Below are positions 4,195 to 58,460 of a DNA stretch of 64,000 nucleotides, in pieces. Made by a program: the position numbers and the translations under genes. The notes below the pieces were generated by a model. The model saw only the letters and a program-made list of their open reading frames with translations, was not told where the DNA came from and made no database searches. Source of the DNA: Terriglobia bacterium (lineage in GTDB: Bacteria; Acidobacteriota; Terriglobia; Terriglobales; Acidobacteriaceae); NCBI GenBank assembly GCA_963803655.1, contig CAWDNR010000006.1:10222-74221 (forward strand). The letters are read 5' to 3'. Numbering within the stretch: the first letter of the stretch is position 1; each line of letters starts with the position of its first letter.

Positions 4195-5556
4195 TTAAAG
4201 TCCCCTAACGCGGTACAGGACGACCCCATGCGATGGAACAACAGCACTGATGGTGCTGCTTGTTTTCTTCGTCTCGCCGGTCCACAGGTCGTGTAAGGAA
4301 TAGCCGCTTTCGTTTTCGGGGAGGCCTACGGTCAATGCTGGAACGGAGACTTCCTCTGCCTTCCCGCCGGTGTTGAACAAACCGACGATCGTGTCTCCGT
4401 TCGGTTCCCTCTTGGCGAACACCTGCTGGTTGCCGGTATTGAGCACTCTTTTCGCGGCGATCGAATCCTGGTCGACAGCAAGGACTTCGGAGTTCTCCAG
4501 GTATTTCTGCAGATCCGTTTGGTCGAGGTGAGTAAGATCGACGCCGAGGATGAAAGGTGCTGCTCCAAGGGCCCAAAGGCTGATCTGAGTCTGGCGCTCG
4601 ACCGGAGTCAGCCCGTCGTTGCTGCCATTTCCTACCTCGATGGAGTCATAGTCATTGAAAGCGCCTGGACCAGCGTAAGGCTGCCACTCCGCCACGTAGT
4701 TGAAGCGTTTGGCAACGTCGGCCCAGCTGGTCAGTGGGTAGCTGATACCGCCCTTTTCGCAGCGATAGCATTCGACGTCGGGCGCGAATTCCCATTGATT
4801 GGCATACTTCATCAAGGTCGGGGCGATAGCGATTGTAAGGTGCCCCTGCGTGACGTCCAAGACCATGGGCCGCCCGCTTTGCCGTATAGCATTCGACCAT
4901 GCCTTAACGTCAGCGGCGTTACTGTCTTTCATGCCGTCAATTTTGATGTAATCGACACCCCACGCCGCGAGCATATCTACCCATGAATTCGTATACTCCT
5001 GCGCGCCAGGCTTGTTGTAGTCAATGCGGACCATGCCCTTGCAGTTGTAGTTGTTCTCCTCTACAGACGGTTCCGCAATCTGGGCAGCCGTGTACGATGT
5101 GCCCTTAATGGGCGTGTTCCGGCTGACTGCCTGCTTCGAAATACCCGGCGTAACATAGATTCCGAACTTCATCCCGAGACTGTGGATGTAGTCAGCGACT
5201 ACCTTGATGCCATCGGTATCTCCCTGGGCCGGGAATCTCGACGAGTCTGTCATCCAGCGGCCATAAGGGTCGACGTTCGGACCTTGCGGTCCCGGACACT
5301 GATACCAAAAGTCGTCGAGGTTTACGTATTGGTAGCCCATTTTTTGCAATCCGAAATCATGCAGGGCGAGCGCCTGAGCTTTCATTTGGGCTGCCGTGGG
5401 ATGTTTGCGGAGGAAGCTCCAGCTACTCCAGCCGAGAACGGGCGTGCGCTCGAGGCCATTATCCTCTGCGCTGGCGTTGTGCAGGATCCCGCCCGCCAAC
5501 AGCGCGACCAGCATTGGTGCTCTCAAGCTGTGTGTCAATTCCCTCAAAAAATTCAT
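4195..5556 (-). CDS. alpha-galactosidase, glycoside hydrolase family 27, secreted
   Basis: 453 aa with a signal peptide. GWSSWSF...YQYVNLDDFWY, YIKIDG and C-terminal beta-sandwich pattern of GH27 melibiase-type enzymes. Confidence 0.8.
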   Translation of the reverse strand: MNFLRELTHSLRAPMLVALLAGGILHNASAEDNGLERTPVLGWSSWSFLRKHPTAAQMKAQALALHDFGLQKMGYQYVNLDDFWYQCPGPQGPNVDPYGRWMTDSSRFPAQGDTDGIKVVADYIHSLGMKFGIYVTPGISKQAVSRNTPIKGTSYTAAQIAEPSVEENNYNCKGMVRIDYNKPGAQEYTNSWVDMLAAWGVDYIKIDGMKDSNAADVKAWSNAIRQSGRPMVLDVTQGHLTIAIAPTLMKYANQWEFAPDVECYRCEKGGISYPLTSWADVAKRFNYVAEWQPYAGPGAFNDYDSIEVGNGSNDGLTPVERQTQISLWALGAAPFILGVDLTHLDQTDLQKYLENSEVLAVDQDSIAAKRVLNTGNQQVFAKREPNGDTIVGLFNTGGKAEEVSVPALTVGLPENESGYSLHDLWTGETKKTSSTISAVVPSHGVVLYRVRGL

Positions 5557-5685
5557 CCCTTTTCTCTATCATAAGCGGCGGGACAAAAACAATTACGCAC
5601 GGCAAGCGGTGCACATACCTGTATTCGTGATTGCTCCTGCGGGACGTGGAGCACGCTGGTCAATTGAAGCAAAATCGCGATTACA

Positions 5686-6654
5686 GTGCGCCGGGATAAA
5701 CCGGCATGAAGCAGAGGATGAAAGTTCCTTACGAGAAAGGAGTAGGGAGCAGTCGACAAGGCTGGGAATCTTGCGAGGTGAAAGTCCTCGCGCCGCCAAT
5801 TGCCTGTAGTCGGGCGGCTAGCAAATCCGATGCGTGCGAAGGTAACGACGCACGTTCTGCTCGGACGTAAACGCCTCAGCTGCCCTGCAGGGAAACTTGC
5901 AGCGGTAGGAACGATCTGGGAGGCAAGCAAACTTGGAGGCCTGAACATAACGGAATAGCTGCAGCCTCGAAAATCTCGTCCGTGGAAAATCGTGTTCGCG
6001 GGATGAAGCGGGAAGCCGACCCGAGCTACTCCAGGGGAAGGCCGATGACGCCGAGGAAGAACCAGGCAAGTGCACTCGGTGGGACCGCCGTGGTAGGGGC
6101 TCAGGCATCTGAGGAAGGATTCGCAGAATAACGTCGAGAAGGTCCCGTTGGCAACAGGGGCTGATGGCAACCTGCAGAGACTCCTCTAACGAGGCTACGA
6201 CCGAAGGTGAGGAGAGGTGACGGGATCGGCGCATGAGTCCGTAGGAGCGATGAATGAGGGGTAACGCCCTCAGAAGAGACGGTACACGTCTCTGCGATGG
6301 AGGTAACGCCGACATTGCGCAAAGGGACTCTGGGTCTTGGTGGTTTCGTCGTTCAGCGGGGTGGTCGGACACAGAGCCGACAATGAACCTCACGTGGGAG
6401 ATGGAACTAGGCCTTGAGCAAACCACGGAAGCTGGGGTGGATTGCGAATCAGCGCTTAAACCTCACCAAACTGGGAAGGCTCGAGGAAGACAGACCAAGA
6501 CTCCGAACCGGACCTTGGGAAATCCGGCTGTCCGGGATTATAGGGGGGCCTCCGGAAACGTAGCAACGGTGGAATTGTGAACCCAACTCGCAATCGAAAG
6601 AGCGGGCTTGGTAACCCTCCACCTACAGCTGGCGCGCTGGAGTTCTATCCCAAC
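5686..6654 (+). mobile_element. ORF-less group II intron-like ribozyme, copy B-prime (969 nt)
   Basis: Starts GUGCG and ends AC. Colinear similarity by eye to 8101..8984. Shared motif CGTAGGAGCGATGAA at 6240..6254. Domain V-like hairpin 6505..6539. Long domain VI helix (6543..6555 with 6637..6651) with bulged A6647 seven nt from the 3' end. No ORF. Confidence 0.6.
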
Positions 6655-6867
6655 CGATCCGCTCGGCCTCGAGTCTTGCGCGGTTACCGCGAGGGACACA
6701 GCGAAGCGTAGATAGAGGATAGGTGGGGTGGGTATTCAGCTCCGAAAAGATGCCATCCGGACGCCGACGCCCTTGTAATGCGCGGAAGGCAACATGAACA
6801 GGCGCGATAGCGCGAGCTCCTGTTCAGTCCGGCGTAGTCGAAGACCCCAGACACGCCGAGAAACTTC

Positions 6868-8050
6868 ATGCACGAGAACCGGGAGACCTCGGAGACACCG
6901 GCGGCTCAACCAGGCCGCAGGTCGGCGGGCGAAGGCCAGTGCCACAAGGCCCGCGCGTACGTCTGCGAGGAGTCACACAGCGGCATAGTGCCTATGAACC
7001 ATTCGAACCAAGATGGAACATCGCCGGCGGAGAGTGGGGAGGGAAGGCCGCTGATCAAGGAGAACGCTGGTCAACCTAACACGTACTCGACACAGAGCGG
7101 GAAGGGCGTGTCACAAGGGCTGGCGGGCGTGCGGAAAGCAGCAGGGGAAAATAAGGAGATGAAGTTCACCGCCTTGCTCCACCATCTGACCGTCGATCTG
7201 CTGCGGGAAAGCTTTTACTCCCTGAAGAGGAAGGCCGCACCCGGAGTGGACGGTGTCACCTGGCAGGAGTATGAAGACGGGCTAGAGGATCGATTGACCG
7301 ATCTTCATGGCCGAGTTCATCGCGGAGCCTATCGAGCGACGCCATCGAGAAGAGTGTACATAGAGAAAGCAGACGGACGGCAACGTCCACTAGCGGTCCC
7401 GGCTATCGAAGACAAACTTGTCCAACAGGCCGTGGTTACCATCCTCAACCAGATCTACGAGGAAGACTTTCTCGGCTTTTCCTATGGATTTCGCCCGGGG
7501 CGCAGCCAGCATCAAGCGCTGGACGCGTTGTCGTACGCGCTCCTGAAGAAGAAGGTGAACTACGTTCTGGACGCCGACATCCGAGGATTTTTCGATAACC
7601 TCGACAAGAGTTGGCTGGTCCAGTTCGTGGAGCATCGCGTCGCGGACCCCCGCATCCTACGGCTGATCCAGAAATGGCTCAACGCTGGGGTGATGGAGGA
7701 AGGCGAATGGTCGAATACGAAGACAGGTAGTCCGCAAGGTTCGGTGATTTCACCGCTTCTCGCGAATATCTACTTGCACTACGCTTTCGATCTCTGGGTG
7801 AACGTGTGGCGCAAGAAATGGGCACACGGCGAGGTGGCTGTCATCCGCTATGCGGATGATGTCATCTTGGGATTTCAGCACCAGACGGACGCAGATCGTT
7901 TCTTGGAGAACTTACGGGAGCGGCTGGGGATGTTTGGACTGGAACTGCACCCAGATAAGACGCGCCGGATCGAGTTCGGTAGATTTGCGGAACAGAACCG
8001 GAAACGCAGAGGAGAAGGGAAACCCGACACGTTCGATTTCCTCGGCTTCA
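6868..8050 (+). CDS. group II intron reverse transcriptase/maturase RT-A, 5' segment (interrupted by intron C)
   Basis: ALLHHLTVDLLRESFYSLKRKAAPGVDGVTW, RPLAVPAIEDKLVQQA, FSYGFRPGRSQHQALD, SPLLANIYLH and YADDVILGF RT motifs. RT-like sequence ends at FDFLGF (8050). Frame closed upstream by TAG at 6835..6837. An alternative start is at 6994. Confidence 0.75.
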
Positions 8051-8100
8051 GTGTGCTGCAGGAGCACACGGATAAGGAGTTCATCATGAACTAATCAACC

Positions 8101-8984
8101 GTGTGAATAAGCTGCGCGATAGATGAGGGTAGGCCCCTGGAGCAGCCGACAAGACCGCAAATCTGGAAAGGTGAAAGTCCTTTCTCCGTCAATTGCCTGT
8201 ATCAGACGGATAGTATATCCGGTGCGTGCAGAGGCAACGAAGCACGTTCTGCCCGGAAGTAAAAGTCTCGGCCGCCCTGCGAAATTTGCAGCGGTGGGAG
8301 CGATCTGGGAGACAAGCAAACTCGGAGGCTTGAACGTAAGAACTGTCCGATGACAACCACGAAACCTCACCGCGGAAAAATCGTGTTCGCGGATGAAACG
8401 GGAAGCCGACCTGAGAGGGGTCTAGGGAAGGCCGATGACACCGAGGAAGAAACAGGCAAGTGCACTCGGTGGGACCGTCGGGGTTGAGGGCCAGGCATCT
8501 GAGGAAAGAATTGCGGAGATAACGTCGGGAAGAACCGTTTCCCAGCAGGGGGCTCGCAGCAACCTGCAAGGACCGCCGGAATAAGTGTGGATACATGAAT
8601 CCGGAGGAGGGAGCTGGTTTGGCGCATGAGCTCGTATGAGCGATGAAGAGGGGGTAACGCCCTTCGAGGTGGTGTTGAACGCCACCCTGGCACGAGTAAT
8701 GCTAGTGCCAGGCAAAGGAGCTCTGGGCACTTGGCAGTCCTAGCATGGTCAACGACGTAAGTCGGAGGAGCCATGATTTAAAGACGAGTCGAGAGGTAAA
8801 CCGGACTGGGTTGGGGCGTATGCGAGCGAGCGCTTGAGTTTCACCCGTCTCGGAAAGGTCTCTCGGGGAAAGGCCAAGGTCAAAACCGGAATCGGGAAAT
8901 CCGACCTTCCGGGATTGCAGGGGGGCCCGAGGAAACGTGACTTTGTCTTATGACAAGGTGCGCGCGCCTCGGCTCTATCCCGAC
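8101..8984 (+). mobile_element. ORF-less group II intron-like ribozyme, copy B (884 nt), nested 50 nt into intron C
   Basis: 5' GUGUG, 3' AC. GGUUGA (8482..8487) is the exact complement of the preceding flank UCAACC (8095..8100). Domain V-like hairpin 8882..8916. Domain VI helix (8920..8932 with 8967..8980) has bulged A8977. No ORF. Confidence 0.65.
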
Positions 8985-9425
8985 CGGGATCGGTTTTCAG
9001 GAGCAGATCTCAAACCACTCCAAGCTGCTGTGGTAAAAGGCCGTGGTGGTGAGCGTTGGAGAAAAAGCGCGAGAACAAACTCGTGCAGGTGAGCATCCGA
9101 GAGACGAACGAAAGTGAACCCTTTCGAAGACGCGTCGTTAAGAAATCAAGGGTCGTCGAAACCAGGAGCGTGAAGCCCACCTGGGACAAGTCCGCGGGGT
9201 GCCTGATGACTGTGCGGACGGCGACCGGCGTAGAGGGGGCGTGAAGCGGATGCAGGCTGTTGCGCGGAACTGCAGGAACCAGTCGCTCTGATGTCAAGGG
9301 AGAAGCACAAGCGGCGAAAACCGCGAGGCGAGCGTACCAATGCGGAGCACTGGGGCGGACCGATTCGTAGGAGCGATGAAGGCTCGTAATGGAGCTGGAG
9401 CAAAGGGATCGGGTCAGGTGGTCGC

Positions 9426-10712
9426 ATGACCGAAGCAACTGGTAACAGGAGGACCTCGATGCGTGCGACAGACAAGCCGTTCAACATCGACAAGAAACGA
9501 GTGTACGAAGCGTACAAAGCGGTCAAATCCAATGGCGGAGCGGCCGGCGTGGACGGTCAGACGATCGAGCAGTGCGAAGCCGACTTGAAGAGCAATCTCT
9601 ACAAGATCTGGAACAGAATGAGCTCGGGAACCTACTTTCCTCCGCCGGTGCGAGCCGTTTCCATTCCTAAAAAGACTGGAGGTCAGCGGATTTTGGGTGT
9701 GCCCACGGTAGCGGATCGCGTGGCACAGATGGTGGTCAAGCAAGTCATTGAGCCGAATCTAGACTCCGTATTTCTGACAGATTCCTATGGCTACAGACCG
9801 AGAAAATCGGCACTCGACGCCGTGGGTGTCACGCGAGAGCGGTGTTGGAAGTACGATTGGGTACTAGAGTTTGACATCAAGGGCCGGTTCGACAACATCG
9901 ACCACGAACTTCTGCTACGGGCCATTCGGAGACATGGGACGTGCAAATGGGCGCTGCTGTACATCGAAAGATGGCTGAAAGCACCGACGGTGCAGGAAGA
10001 TGGAACCAGAATTGAGCGAAACCGTGGTACGCCCCAAGGGGGTGTGGTTAGCCCAATTTTGTCGAACACTTTCCTCCACTATGCGTTCGATCTCTGGATG
10101 GCACGGACTCACCCAGATCTCCCGTGGTGTCGGTATGCCGACGATGGGTGGGTTCACTGCCGGAGCGAGCAAGAAGCACAAGCTCTCAAGGCCGAACTTC
10201 AAGCCCGCTTCGCGGAGTGCCGTCTGGAGCTGCATCCGACAAAAACCAAGATCGTTTACTGCAAAGACGGGAAGCGGAAAGGCAAGTACCCGAACGTCAA
10301 ATTTGACTTTCTCGGGTATTGCTTCCGACCCCGTCTGGTTAGACGTTTCCGGGATAATACGCTGTTCTGCGGATTCAATCCCGCGGTCAGCACCACGGCG
10401 ATGAAAGCCATGCGGTCGGCGATACGGGAACTGAATCTTCGCCATCAAACTCAGTTGTCTTTGGACGACATTGCCCGGCAGCTCAACCCACTCCTTCGGG
10501 GTTGGATCGAGTACTACGGGCGATACGCCCCATCGGCACTGTACCCCTTGCTACGGTACGTCAATCAGACGTTATTGGCCTGGGTGATGCGAAAGTTCAA
10601 ACGCTTTAGAGGCCACACGATCCGAGCGGGCCATTTTCTCCAACGGCTTGCCGCGGAGCGAGCGGCTCTCTTCGTTCACTGGAATCTCGGTATGACCGGC
10701 ACGTTTGCCTGA
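9426..10712 (+). CDS. group II intron reverse transcriptase/maturase (RT-C), apparently intact, no endonuclease domain
   Basis: 428 aa. GGAAGVDGQTIEQ, NLYKIWNRMSSGTYFPPPVRAVSIPKKTGGQRILGVPTVADRVAQ, YGYRPRKSALDA, QGGVVSPILSN, YADDGWV, FDFLGY and maturase-like LLRGWIEYYG. Confidence 0.85.
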   Translation: MTEATGNRRTSMRATDKPFNIDKKRVYEAYKAVKSNGGAAGVDGQTIEQCEADLKSNLYKIWNRMSSGTYFPPPVRAVSIPKKTGGQRILGVPTVADRVAQMVVKQVIEPNLDSVFLTDSYGYRPRKSALDAVGVTRERCWKYDWVLEFDIKGRFDNIDHELLLRAIRRHGTCKWALLYIERWLKAPTVQEDGTRIERNRGTPQGGVVSPILSNTFLHYAFDLWMARTHPDLPWCRYADDGWVHCRSEQEAQALKAELQARFAECRLELHPTKTKIVYCKDGKRKGKYPNVKFDFLGYCFRPRLVRRFRDNTLFCGFNPAVSTTAMKAMRSAIRELNLRHQTQLSLDDIARQLNPLLRGWIEYYGRYAPSALYPLLRYVNQTLLAWVMRKFKRFRGHTIRAGHFLQRLAAERAALFVHWNLGMTGTFA

Positions 10713-10715
10713 TGG

Positions 10716-10789
10716 GAGCCGGATGAGCCGAGAGGTTCACGTCCGGTTCTGCGAGAGCCTCGGGGTGAAACTCCCCGGGGCTACTCAAC
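10716..10789 (+). ncRNA. domains V and VI of intron C
   Basis: 10716..10749 GAGCCGGAUGAGCCGAGAGGUUCACGUCCGGUUC: AGC triad, GAGA tetraloop, AC bulge. Domain VI is GAGAGCCUCGGGG...CCCCGGGGCU-A-CUC with bulged A10783 followed by CUCAAC. Confidence 0.75.
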
Positions 10790-11169
10790 CGCACATCAGC
10801 GGGAAGAACAGGTTAGGGCGGTTCGCAGTGAGGCGCAAGACGATCCGCAAACGCATGGGGGCGAAGCTGCGGGAGATTAAGCAGCAGCTCCGTGAGCGAA
10901 TGCATGATCCCGTGCGCCAAACCGGACAATGGCTCAAATCGGTCGTGCAAGGCCACTTCAACTACTATGCGGTGCCGGGGAACCTCGACAGTCTCGGCAT
11001 ATTCCGGGAGCGGCTAATCGGGCAGTGGTGGCGGACACTTCGCCGCCGCAGCCAGAAACGCCCGCTCTCCTGGGAGCGTACTCTTGCCTTGGCTAACCGA
11101 TGGCTCCCTCAACCGCGCGTGCTCCATCCATATCCTGCCGTTCGCTTTGCCGCCAGTCATCCGAGATAA
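10790..11169 (+). CDS. group II intron RT/maturase RT-A, 3' segment (thumb/maturase part)
   Basis: HISGKNRLGRFAVRRKTIRKRMGAKLREIK...GHFNYYAVPGN...VLHPYPAVRFAASHPR. Joins the codon begun at 8050 (a + cg = ACG Thr). Confidence 0.75.
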
Positions 11170-11243
11170 GAACCGGATGCGCTAATCAGCGCCCGTCCGG
11201 GTCCGCGCGGGGGGCAGTCAGCGATGACTGTCCCTACCGCGAT
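11170..11243 (+). ncRNA. domains V and VI at the 3' end of the RT-A intron
   Basis: 11170..11203 GAACCGGAUGCGCUAAUCAGCGCCCGUCCGGGUC (34 nt, two-nt CC bulge). Domain VI is GGGGCAGUCA-GCGA-UGACUGUCCC with bulged A11236 followed by CCGCGAU. Confidence 0.6.
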
Positions 11244-11418
11244 CTCATCACCGAGTTCGCCCGGAACCCCAACGAACTCCGCACATTCCGAAACAATGAA
11301 GTTAAGCATCTAGAGCAGGCCGGGCATGCCCCGGCTCCCCAACCGAGGCGCTAAGGCGTCCGCGGTGGTACGGCCTAAGCAGGCTGGATGCGGCGATAAG
11401 TCGCAAAAGGAATTCCAA

Positions 11419-11694
11419 ATGTCAGACGAGCGTGAGCTTAAACGTGTACCTCGCTGCCTACTACCAGTGAACAACCTCAACCTTGAACCCGAGTACTTCG
11501 GCGAACGGCTAGGCCGCGGCTACGTCCGTGTGCCCTACAAGGCGTGCGGAGTCGAATATGACCGACGCGAGATTGAGGAGTACTCTCATCCGTTCGCGCA
11601 CCACGTTTCCAACTTTATGTGTCCCAAGGGGCACCTTGGCGAAACGCGGCGGCTCTGGGAGCCGGTCAAGGCTGCCGAGAAAGTGGATCTGTAA
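11419..11694 (+). CDS. hypothetical small protein
   Basis: Internal ATG of the 11326..11694 ORF (MSDERELKRVPRC...). No family recognised. Confidence 0.35.
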   Translation: MSDERELKRVPRCLLPVNNLNLEPEYFGERLGRGYVRVPYKACGVEYDRREIEEYSHPFAHHVSNFMCPKGHLGETRRLWEPVKAAEKVDL

Positions 11695-14087: not shown

Positions 14088-14164
14088 CGGGGAGTGGCTC
14101 AGCCTGGTAGAGCACCTGGTTCGGGACCAGGGGGTCGGAGGTTCGAATCCTCTCTCCCCGACCA
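14088..14164 (+). tRNA. tRNA-Pro (anticodon CGG), CCA encoded
   Basis: Hand-folded cloverleaf: acceptor CGGGGAG/CTCCCCG, D arm GCTC..GAGC, anticodon stem CCTGG/CCAGG with loop TTCGGGA, T arm GGAGG-TTCGAAT-CCTCT, discriminator A plus CCA. Confidence 0.9.
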
Positions 14165-58200: not shown

Positions 58201-58359
58201 TCTCACTCATCGGTTCGCTGGGCGCATCTATAATGTGAATGTGAATTGAGTTTCCGACCGCCTCAGCCTTCGGGCATACCCTGGCTGTGGCGGCGAGGGC
58301 TGGTTTCTCTTTGCGTCCCTTGCGCCAAGGATTCCGCAAGGTTCGCAAAAAAAAACCAA

Positions 58360-58460
58360 CCCTGAGGGTACAGATGGAAATGCCTGTGCCTCCCGGCTTC
58401 GCGAGAAGCCATTGGAAAGGAAACAGCCGCCGGGATTTTCCCGCCCGCCTGTCCCTTTCT
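58360..58460 (+). promoter_or_regulatory. candidate molybdenum cofactor (Moco) riboswitch
   Basis: About 100 nt upstream of moaA. GCCUCCCGGC..., AUUGGAAAGG and GCCGCCGGG resemble the conserved Moco-motif blocks as I recall them. An outer helix GGGUACAG / CUGUCCC closes the element. Confidence 0.45.

Follow-up and report, generated by a model that had tools for sequence, protein, structure and literature searches.

The catalytic core of a group II intron contains a triplex of three layers, U-A-U, G-G-U and A-C-G, and conservation within the intron is highest at the domain V (DV) triad that takes part in it (PMC7583470); other reviews list only AGC or CGC triads (PMC4424553, PMC12350094). U6 small nuclear RNA has a homologous three-layer triplex, built with its own AGC and the G of ACAGAGA, in which the middle layer is taken as G on G by analogy (PMC7583470). 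Nested introns and introns without an open reading frame (ORF) have precedents as well: in Methanosarcina, introns home into introns to form nests, and in cyanobacteria, ORF-less introns are served in trans (PMC4424553). Here, we describe a 64,000-nucleotide (nt) stretch of a Terriglobia bacterium genome (contig CAWDNR010000006.1; hereafter, the window) in which group II introns are nested three levels deep and in which three of them, an intron encoding a reverse transcriptase (RT), termed A, and two ORF-less introns, termed B and B', carry the triad AAC in place of the AGC of almost all other group II introns; a fourth, C*, has a canonical DV. We take the Hoogsteen G of the middle layer to be position 2 of the junction between domains II and III (J2/3), as in the O. 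iheyensis structure. The triad G corresponds to U6 G60, and the J2/3 G to the ACAGAGA G. Full-text searches of the literature turned up no AAC triad, nor did the literature searched contain a natural variant of the middle layer with A in place of G.

The AAC hairpins lie at 11170-11203 (A), 6505-6539 (B') and 8882-8916 (B), just where the first-pass annotation had placed them (all introns are on the forward strand, and coordinates are those of the window). In the canonical 34-nt register, position 3 is an A opposite G32 in all three, and B and B' add A2 opposite A33; the A facing a G at the wobble position and the extra A-A mismatch that the annotation described are thus both seen. As in a canonical DV, six pairs separate C4 from the 2-nt bulge, and the hairpins have the expected length of about 34 nt. 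No alternative register gives an AGC or CGC triad. The DV of A, with its triad at 11171-11173 and G32 at 11201, reads GAACCGGAUGCGCU-AAUC-AGCGC-CC-GUCCGGGUC, with a CC bulge and a loop (UAAUCA) that is of the AAUC rather than the GNRA type, as annotated. It is followed by a domain VI (DVI; 11206-11243) with nine compensatory pairs, whose bulged branch-point A (11236) lies 8 nt from the last intron nucleotide, U11243. Together, the two domains fold with a z score of -4.5 relative to shuffles, and RNAalifold predicts the same fold unguided.

When more members were collected from related genomes, AAC was kept in all of them. GAACCGG is present in 80/80 acidobacterial loci, mostly from Terriglobia, that carry the uninterrupted A-type intron, with G (65 loci) or A (9) at position 32 and U or A at position 33. 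Likewise, AAC is present in 36/36 full-length ORF-less B-type copies; position 33 is always A there, and position 32 is G, C or A. An AGC or CGC triad with a G3 wobble is therefore absent from both families, and none of the aligned sequences of either type forms a standard pair between positions 3 and 32. The hairpins are nonetheless under constraint. In the A-type alignment of DV and DVI (43 distinct sequences), 94.5% of cells are paired and 15 pairs show double changes; for DV and the long-range DVI of the B-type (32 distinct sequences), 91% are paired with 12 double-change pairs; and in neither family is any of 500 shuffles as good. The B-type DVI helix on its own reaches 98.4% pairing and has 6 double-change pairs, and in two B-type copies the lower DV helix has gone from CCGGAC/GUCCGG to CGCUAC/GUAGCG with AAC kept. 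The view that these are maintained hairpins with the 2-nt bulge preserved is supported by these covariation tests, with which RNAalifold agrees.

The change in DV does not come alone. The conserved G at J2/3 position 2 is absent from both families: J2/3 reads ACA in all 71 of the 80 A-type loci in which it is readable, and B-type copies have gamma-C-A-U (29 copies) or gamma-A-A-U (7 copies), whereas the AGC relatives of A have gamma-G-A. Within the B-type, A at position 2 occurs only with C32 (7/7). The position of J2/3 is corroborated by gamma-gamma' covariation with the last intron nucleotide. AGC relatives with J2/3 UGA, AGA and GGA (the last including L205; loci are given numbers of this form) end in A, U and C, respectively, and the AAC-bearing A lineage, with ACA, ends in U, giving A:U, U:A, A:U and G:C pairs across A and its AGC relatives; in the B-type, gamma-gamma' holds in 36/36 copies, G with a final C in 30 and A with a final U in 6.

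These AGC relatives, which belong to the Rfam class RF02005 (group-II-D1D4-6), are the most informative comparison for A. They are endonuclease-minus (En-minus) introns of proteobacterial plasmids (S. meliloti, P. veronii, A. ferrooxidans and B. cenocepacia) and of IMG/VR prophage contigs, and they share with A the 5' ribozyme family (137 to 191 bits), 57 to 63% RT identity, the same DVI, non-GNRA DV loops and a purine-purine mismatch at 3:32 rather than a G-U wobble. In the relatives, the triad is AGC (CGC in one), G3 is opposite A32 and J2/3 is gamma-G-A; the A lineage is flipped, with A3 opposite G32 (sometimes A) and J2/3 A-C-A. Judged from these alignments, then, what is new in the A lineage is a change of J2/3 position 2 from G to C together with G3-to-A and A32-to-G. 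By analogy with solved structures, J2/3 position 2 would contact A3. As a separate observation, the RF02005 class as a whole (L201-L204 and L205-L276) has G3 opposite A32, not the textbook G-U, and non-GNRA loops; L256 and L257 have a CGC triad, and in L232 G3 is paired with C32. RF00029, the Rfam model for canonical DV and DVI, detects these introns marginally (41 to 42 bits) or not at all.

Are A and the ORF-less introns one lineage, as the annotation proposed? The AAC state is indeed common to A, B and B', but the single lineage does not stand. Against Rfam gathering thresholds of 40 bits for RF00029, 49 for RF02005 and 49 for RF02003 (group-II-D1D4-4), A matches RF02005 with 130.7 bits despite the insertion of B' (uninterrupted A-type introns score 160 to 172 bits), and B' and B score 41.9 and 42.0 bits with RF02003 (E of about 1e-6), below threshold, which makes them similar to that family but not members of it. 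Moreover, B-type domain III carries CGUAGGAGCGAUGAA, which is identical in C* and absent from A. Because the domain III of B matches C* and its 5' region resembles RF02003, not RF02005, A and B belong to different structural families. Both have the architecture of six domains arranged about a central wheel, as judged for A from the RF02005 match and from an alifold prediction of the ORF-deleted intron and for the B-type from an alifold prediction of the 36 copies. Relative to canonical introns, the families are alike in their 34- to 35-nt DV hairpin, 2-nt bulge, bulged A 8 nt from the 3' end, pairing of exon-binding site 1 with intron-binding site 1 (EBS1-IBS1), gamma-gamma' and six domains, with an RT in domain IV for A. 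They differ in the AAC triad, in a position 32 that is G, A or C and never U, in C or A at J2/3 position 2 and in a non-GNRA DV loop, and the B-type also lacks the 5' GUGYG.

Both families bear the marks of movement. Within single metagenome-assembled genomes (MAGs), A-type copies at different sites are 99.8 to 100% identical over 1908 to 1911 nt, and these sites share the target motif ...ATC.CGATTACA|CTCA.... The EBS1 loop of A (6774-6779) matches the 5' exon as a perfect 6-mer in 47/60 copies, in more than 10 different combinations (e.g., UGUAAU/AUUACA, UGAAAU/AUUUCA, UAACAU/AUGUUA and CGUAAU/AUUACG, as EBS1/exon). For the B-type, one alignment column (window 6026) perfectly complements the copy's own 5' exon in 27/36 copies, and a metagenome scan with a domain I probe, chosen away from DV, found the family in at least 120 contigs with unrelated flanks. 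Over 40 of these metagenome copies share the same ends, 5' (G/U)(G/U)AGCAGCCGACAAGG and 3' ...UCUAUCCC(A/G)AC, between unrelated flanks. Based on the identical dispersed copies and the exon-matched EBS1, we infer that AAC introns self-splice and reverse splice and that both families, which belong to soil Acidobacteria, are actively mobile. The recurrent A-type target itself (window 5660-5685 and 11244-11250; L015-L044) reads ...TAACTGTCG.AA.ATC.CGATTACA|CTCA... and resembles a repeated intergenic motif; a scan of it for a sigma-70 consensus found no promoter.

In total, these observations are consistent with a reading in which AAC is not decay and the middle triplex layer has been replaced as a unit in both families, leaving a core that still functions, and we give this reading a probability of roughly 0.8 on comparative grounds. 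In the canonical layer, the J2/3 G would contact a G3 paired with U32, and in the AGC relatives of A's class the same G would contact a G3 opposite A32. In the A lineage, we posit that the J2/3 C contacts A3 opposite G32 (sometimes A32); in the B family, C would contact A3 opposite G32 or C32, or A would contact A3 opposite C32. Backbone phosphates of the triad and the bulge hold the catalytic metals, and a rebuilt triple that keeps this geometry should therefore remain able to splice and reverse splice with two metal ions; a rebuilt middle triple with its metal-binding backbone preserved is also the most economical reading. Both the shape of the new triple and its catalytic competence are predictions.

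Several points weigh against this reading. In the ai5gamma literature, G3-to-A point mutants of model introns are reportedly severely defective. The A-type J2/3 assignment comes from an alignment with about 10 distinct AGC relatives and from gamma-gamma', not from a solved structure, and common descent could explain the 7/7 association of J2/3 A with C32 in the B-type. For the A copy in the window, RT expression requires that C* splice out, and no RT partner was found for the B-type.

The replacement need not have arisen twice. Through recombination or template switching, co-resident nested introns of one family may have handed AAC and the J2/3 C to the other, an idea that we consider unlikely but worth keeping. 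B-type introns do sit physically inside A-type introns, at a minimum of three sites, and the two families have in common the lower helix CCGGA...GUCCGG, a C-rich bulge and the run of six Gs that opens DVI. The same lower helix, however, is found in the AGC introns C* and L205 and so is not diagnostic; J2/3 and DV are about 270 nt apart in B, which calls for two exchanges, each on its own; the families are unlike in their DV loops, in position 33 and in DVI architecture; and the domain III of B matches C*, not A. Either convergence or exchange between nested introns may account for the shared state of AAC with J2/3 C.

A less probable alternative, to which we give little credence, is that the AAC core is a weakened ribozyme dependent on a maturase or host factor and that the J2/3 change is a hitch-hiking lineage marker, not compensation. 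Most bacterial introns do need their own RT for splicing in vivo, positions 32 (G/A/C) and 33 (U/A) vary freely, as if unconstrained, and with two AAC origins only, few independent events lie behind the J2/3 correlation. What speaks against this alternative is that the same J2/3 change from G to C (or A) accompanies AAC in two structurally different families, with no AAC copy having a J2/3 G and no AGC relative having a J2/3 C, and that in the LtrB ribonucleoprotein a distance of more than 10 Å is reported between maturase and triplex (PMC7583470).

The annotation's alternative to a lineage with an unusual catalytic core, in which every AAC copy descends from a crippled ancestor and survives as a relic unable to splice, now has hardly any likelihood left. 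Such relics would account for a departure from the intron's most conserved triad, for hairpins that RF00029 does not recognize and for the interrupted RT ORF of the window's A copy. They would not account for same-genome copies at different loci that are 99.8 to 100% identical, RTs intact in all 80 loci, an EBS1 retargeted to each exon, compensatory changes throughout DV and DVI, covarying gamma-gamma' or an ORF-less form at unrelated sites in those 120 or more contigs. Dispersed identical copies, EBS1 retargeting and gamma-gamma' are signatures of mobility by reverse splicing and of 3' splice-site selection, and these signatures exclude the relic reading. The lineage with an unusual core was the better of the two proposals, given the invariant AAC, the covariation and the retargeted EBS1. 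Just as remote is A-to-I editing of the middle A to give an effective A-I-C, which was considered because inosine pairs like G and to which nothing in the data points: an AGC-like RNA would make the partner changes at J2/3 and position 32 unnecessary, and bacterial TadA edits a tRNA-like UACG loop, whereas the triad A sits in a helix in the context GAACC.

In the anatomy of the nest, the earlier boundaries had to be redrawn. Intron A spans 5686-11243 and consists of 1910 nt of its own sequence and two later insertions, B' (909 nt) and C* (2739 nt including B), the sum of which, 5558 nt, is exactly its span. Its first 60 nt (5686-5745), with the canonical GUGCG start, are 100% identical to those of the relative L003. 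In relatives of A, the equivalent of this segment directly adjoins the equivalent of window position 6655; because these 60 nt stand immediately upstream in the uninterrupted introns, A must start at the GUGCG at 5686, with 909 nt inserted at 5746-6654. IBS1 (AUUACA, 5680-5685) consists of the final 6 nt of the 5' exon and complements the EBS1 loop UGUAAU at 6774-6779. The rest of domains I to III, with IVa, occupies 6655-7158 and includes the RF02005 match (6639-6847), EBS1 and the J2/3 ACA (6975-6977). Part 1 of the RT ORF (7159-8050; frame open from 6868, likely start ATG 7159) ends in FDFLGF, and part 2 (10790-11169, stop codon 11167-11169) begins with THISGKNRLGRF.... 

The first insertion, B' (5746-6654), is nested in domain I of A, starts with GGAGCAG and ends with CUAUCCCAAC; its ends are exact, as relatives have the empty site ...GGAGTAG|CGATCC. 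Its EBS1, CUACUCC (6026-6032), pairs with GGAGUAG of the 5' exon (5739-5745). J2/3, located by alifold, is GCAU (6231-6234), in which G is gamma and C stands in place of the conserved J2/3 G. The triad is at 6506-6508, with A3 opposite G32, A2 opposite A33 and a CU bulge. The DVI (6543-6654) is a long-range helix with a distal insertion of about 75 nt, its 5' strand being GGGGGGCCUCC and its 3' strand GGAGUUCU-A-UCCC, followed by AAC; the branch-point A is 6647. The annotation had taken the GUGCG at 5686 as the start of B', but this is the 5' end of A. A layout with B' as an independent intron from 5686 and A beginning near 6630 was excluded: homology between B and B' starts exactly at 5746 and 8139, and 5686-5745 is the 5' end of A in all relatives.

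The second insertion, C* (8051-10789), interrupts the RT ORF of A. The clean insertion (FLGF|TH) that had been read as a homing signature of B is that of C*, and B is nested inside it. The first 88 nt of C* (8051-8138; GUGUG start) are RmInt1-like, of class D. Then comes B (8139-8984, 846 nt), with its EBS1 at 8416-8423, J2/3 GCAU at 8624-8627, DV at 8882-8916 (triad 8884-8886) and branch-point A at 8977. The remainder of C* (8985-10789) matches RF01999 with 92 bits and holds an RT ORF (9426-10712), an AGC DV (10716-10749) and a DVI that runs to 10789. Without B, C* aligns unbroken to a multicopy intron of S. meliloti GR4, across ...GGCCCCU|CGGGAUCGG; it is continuous with RmInt1 (S. meliloti, class D/IIB3) only after 8139-8984 is removed, which means that the GUGCG at 8958 is not the 5' end of C*. 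This GUGCG lies within the DVI of B, and an arrangement in which it starts C*, leaving a 16-nt exon between B and C*, was excluded, the stretch being the 3' strand of that DVI. A circularly permuted intron, suggested by the resemblance of the 3' tail of B to an intron 5' end, was excluded likewise, since the domains follow one another in the normal order and this tail belongs to DVI, as its covarying 3' strand. C* has an RT 77% identical to that of the GR4 intron, a ribozyme collinear with RmInt1 and a canonical AGC with G-U. The annotation was right about this DV, which RF00029 finds with 58 bits (10714-10789). C* stands outside the AAC phenomenon, as the host of B and a guest in the ORF of A.

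All three insertions have exact inner ends and leave a continuous host upon removal, as expected of twintrons: A without B' equals its relatives, the A ORF without C* is an RT of 520 amino acids (aa), and C* without B is an RmInt1-like intron. By ordinary twintron logic, the RT of A would be made in this window only after C* splices, and domain I of A would fold only after B' is removed. The spliced RT (6868/7159-8050 plus 10790-11169) carries PF00078, is 97% identical to that of L001 and has hundreds of full-length homologues (82 to 97% identity; the source name is "group II intron reverse transcriptase/maturase"), from which it follows that the ORF is interrupted exactly at 8050|10790; it is 59 to 63% identical to annotated ltrA genes. 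An RT/maturase ORF in domain IV, as a mobile group II retroelement has, is thus present in A, and the ORF is uninterrupted in 80/80 A-type loci. The first 97 codons of the 520-aa frame (6868-7158) overlap ribozyme domains II and III, and the RT proper probably starts at the M at 7159, without these codons being translated; homologues are accordingly annotated at 478 to 567 aa. One A-type copy (L017, position 2222) starts with ATGCG (G1 to A); apart from this base, it matches its three siblings in that MAG with 100% identity.

The ORF-less introns have unusual ends. The GUGYG start that the annotation assigned to them was misplaced along with their boundaries; both copies in the window start with GGAGC. 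A start of (G/U)(G/U)AGCAG is found in 36/36 B-type copies, with boundaries fixed by empty sites, compared with GUGCG for A and GUGUG for C*. Three independent empty sites fix this 5' end exactly (window 5746-5752 and 8139-8145; L083-L160). After the branch-point A, A ends in AU, B' in AAC and B in GAC; in 6/36 B-type copies, GU or GC stands at the 3' end where AY is expected, and the copies that end in AGU all start with U (5/5). When B' was searched against plasmids with blastn, the sole match was a truncated fragment from Bacillus (plasmid CP085711 of Bacillus sp. F19; L278 3001-3228), which starts with GGAGCAGCCG and is 69% identical over 227 nt; its B-type-like start indicates that the unusual 5' end is not confined to Acidobacteria.

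B-type introns insert repeatedly in class D introns, toward the 5' side of domain I (...GAUGAGGGNNGGCCCCU|CGG...), and also in A-type introns. They resemble the ORF-less introns of Methanosarcina and cyanobacteria in that they occur in genomes with RT-encoding introns, home repeatedly into introns and form twintrons; they differ in their GGAGC 5' end, the AAC triad, the DVI insertion of about 75 nt and the targeting of the 5' part of domain I in two intron classes. They are also abundant, whereas bacterial ORF-less introns are described as rare. HYER (PMC11754743) are likewise compact ORF-less bacterial group II ribozymes, but of class IIC, whereas B-type introns combine AAC with a branch-point DVI and an EBS1 loop like that of IIB introns. 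An RT-encoding B-type was sought among 13 loci that match only the first 60 to 150 nt of B, and all proved to be B-type copies interrupted by other introns. Presumably, the ORF-less introns use an RT from the host intron or from another intron in the cell, and residence in an RT-encoding intron would guarantee co-transcription with the RT. Nesting can go further: metagenome contig JGI12630J15595_10003863 (L145) holds three B-type copies, one within another, inside the RT ORF of an A-type intron, and in L136, L088 and L150, introns with a canonical DV are inserted antisense in B-type copies.

Around the nest, a SAM-I/IV riboswitch-like match (11301-11420, forward strand; 38.4 bits, just below the gathering score of 41.1) begins 58 nt downstream of A, such that intron A may lie in the leader of a riboswitch-controlled gene. 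The upstream neighbor is an alpha-galactosidase gene (4195-5556, reverse strand; Melibiase_2, E = 3e-26). Elsewhere in the window, on the forward strand, are a tRNA gene (14088-14161, 65.6 bits) and a molybdenum cofactor (Moco)/tungsten riboswitch (58240-58438, 49.7 bits).

On balance, we lean toward the fuller proposal that the middle layer has been rebuilt at least twice, from G-on-G-U to C-on-A-G (or A-on-A-C), with full splicing and retromobility kept, and that a large and abundant family of intron-dwelling ORF-less introns has been missed. In an Rfam scan of the region, RF00029 finds only the canonical DV of C*; the hairpins of A, B and B' are unmatched even at E <= 10, and those of L001, L040 and L080 are unmatched at E <= 1. 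Intron searches built on a canonical DV would thus overlook AAC families. RF00029-type searches are blind to AAC introns, and bacterial ORF-less group II introns may be substantially undercounted, a caveat that a 2015 review raised for ORF-less introns (PMC4424553). If the rebuilt layer is real, the supposedly invariant triad G would form a replaceable pair with its partner in J2/3, and by homology this would bear on the catalytic triplex of the spliceosome as well. Does the middle triple contribute through the identity of its bases or through the geometry of its backbone? A natural, mobile A/C replacement would be a ready-made test of that question.
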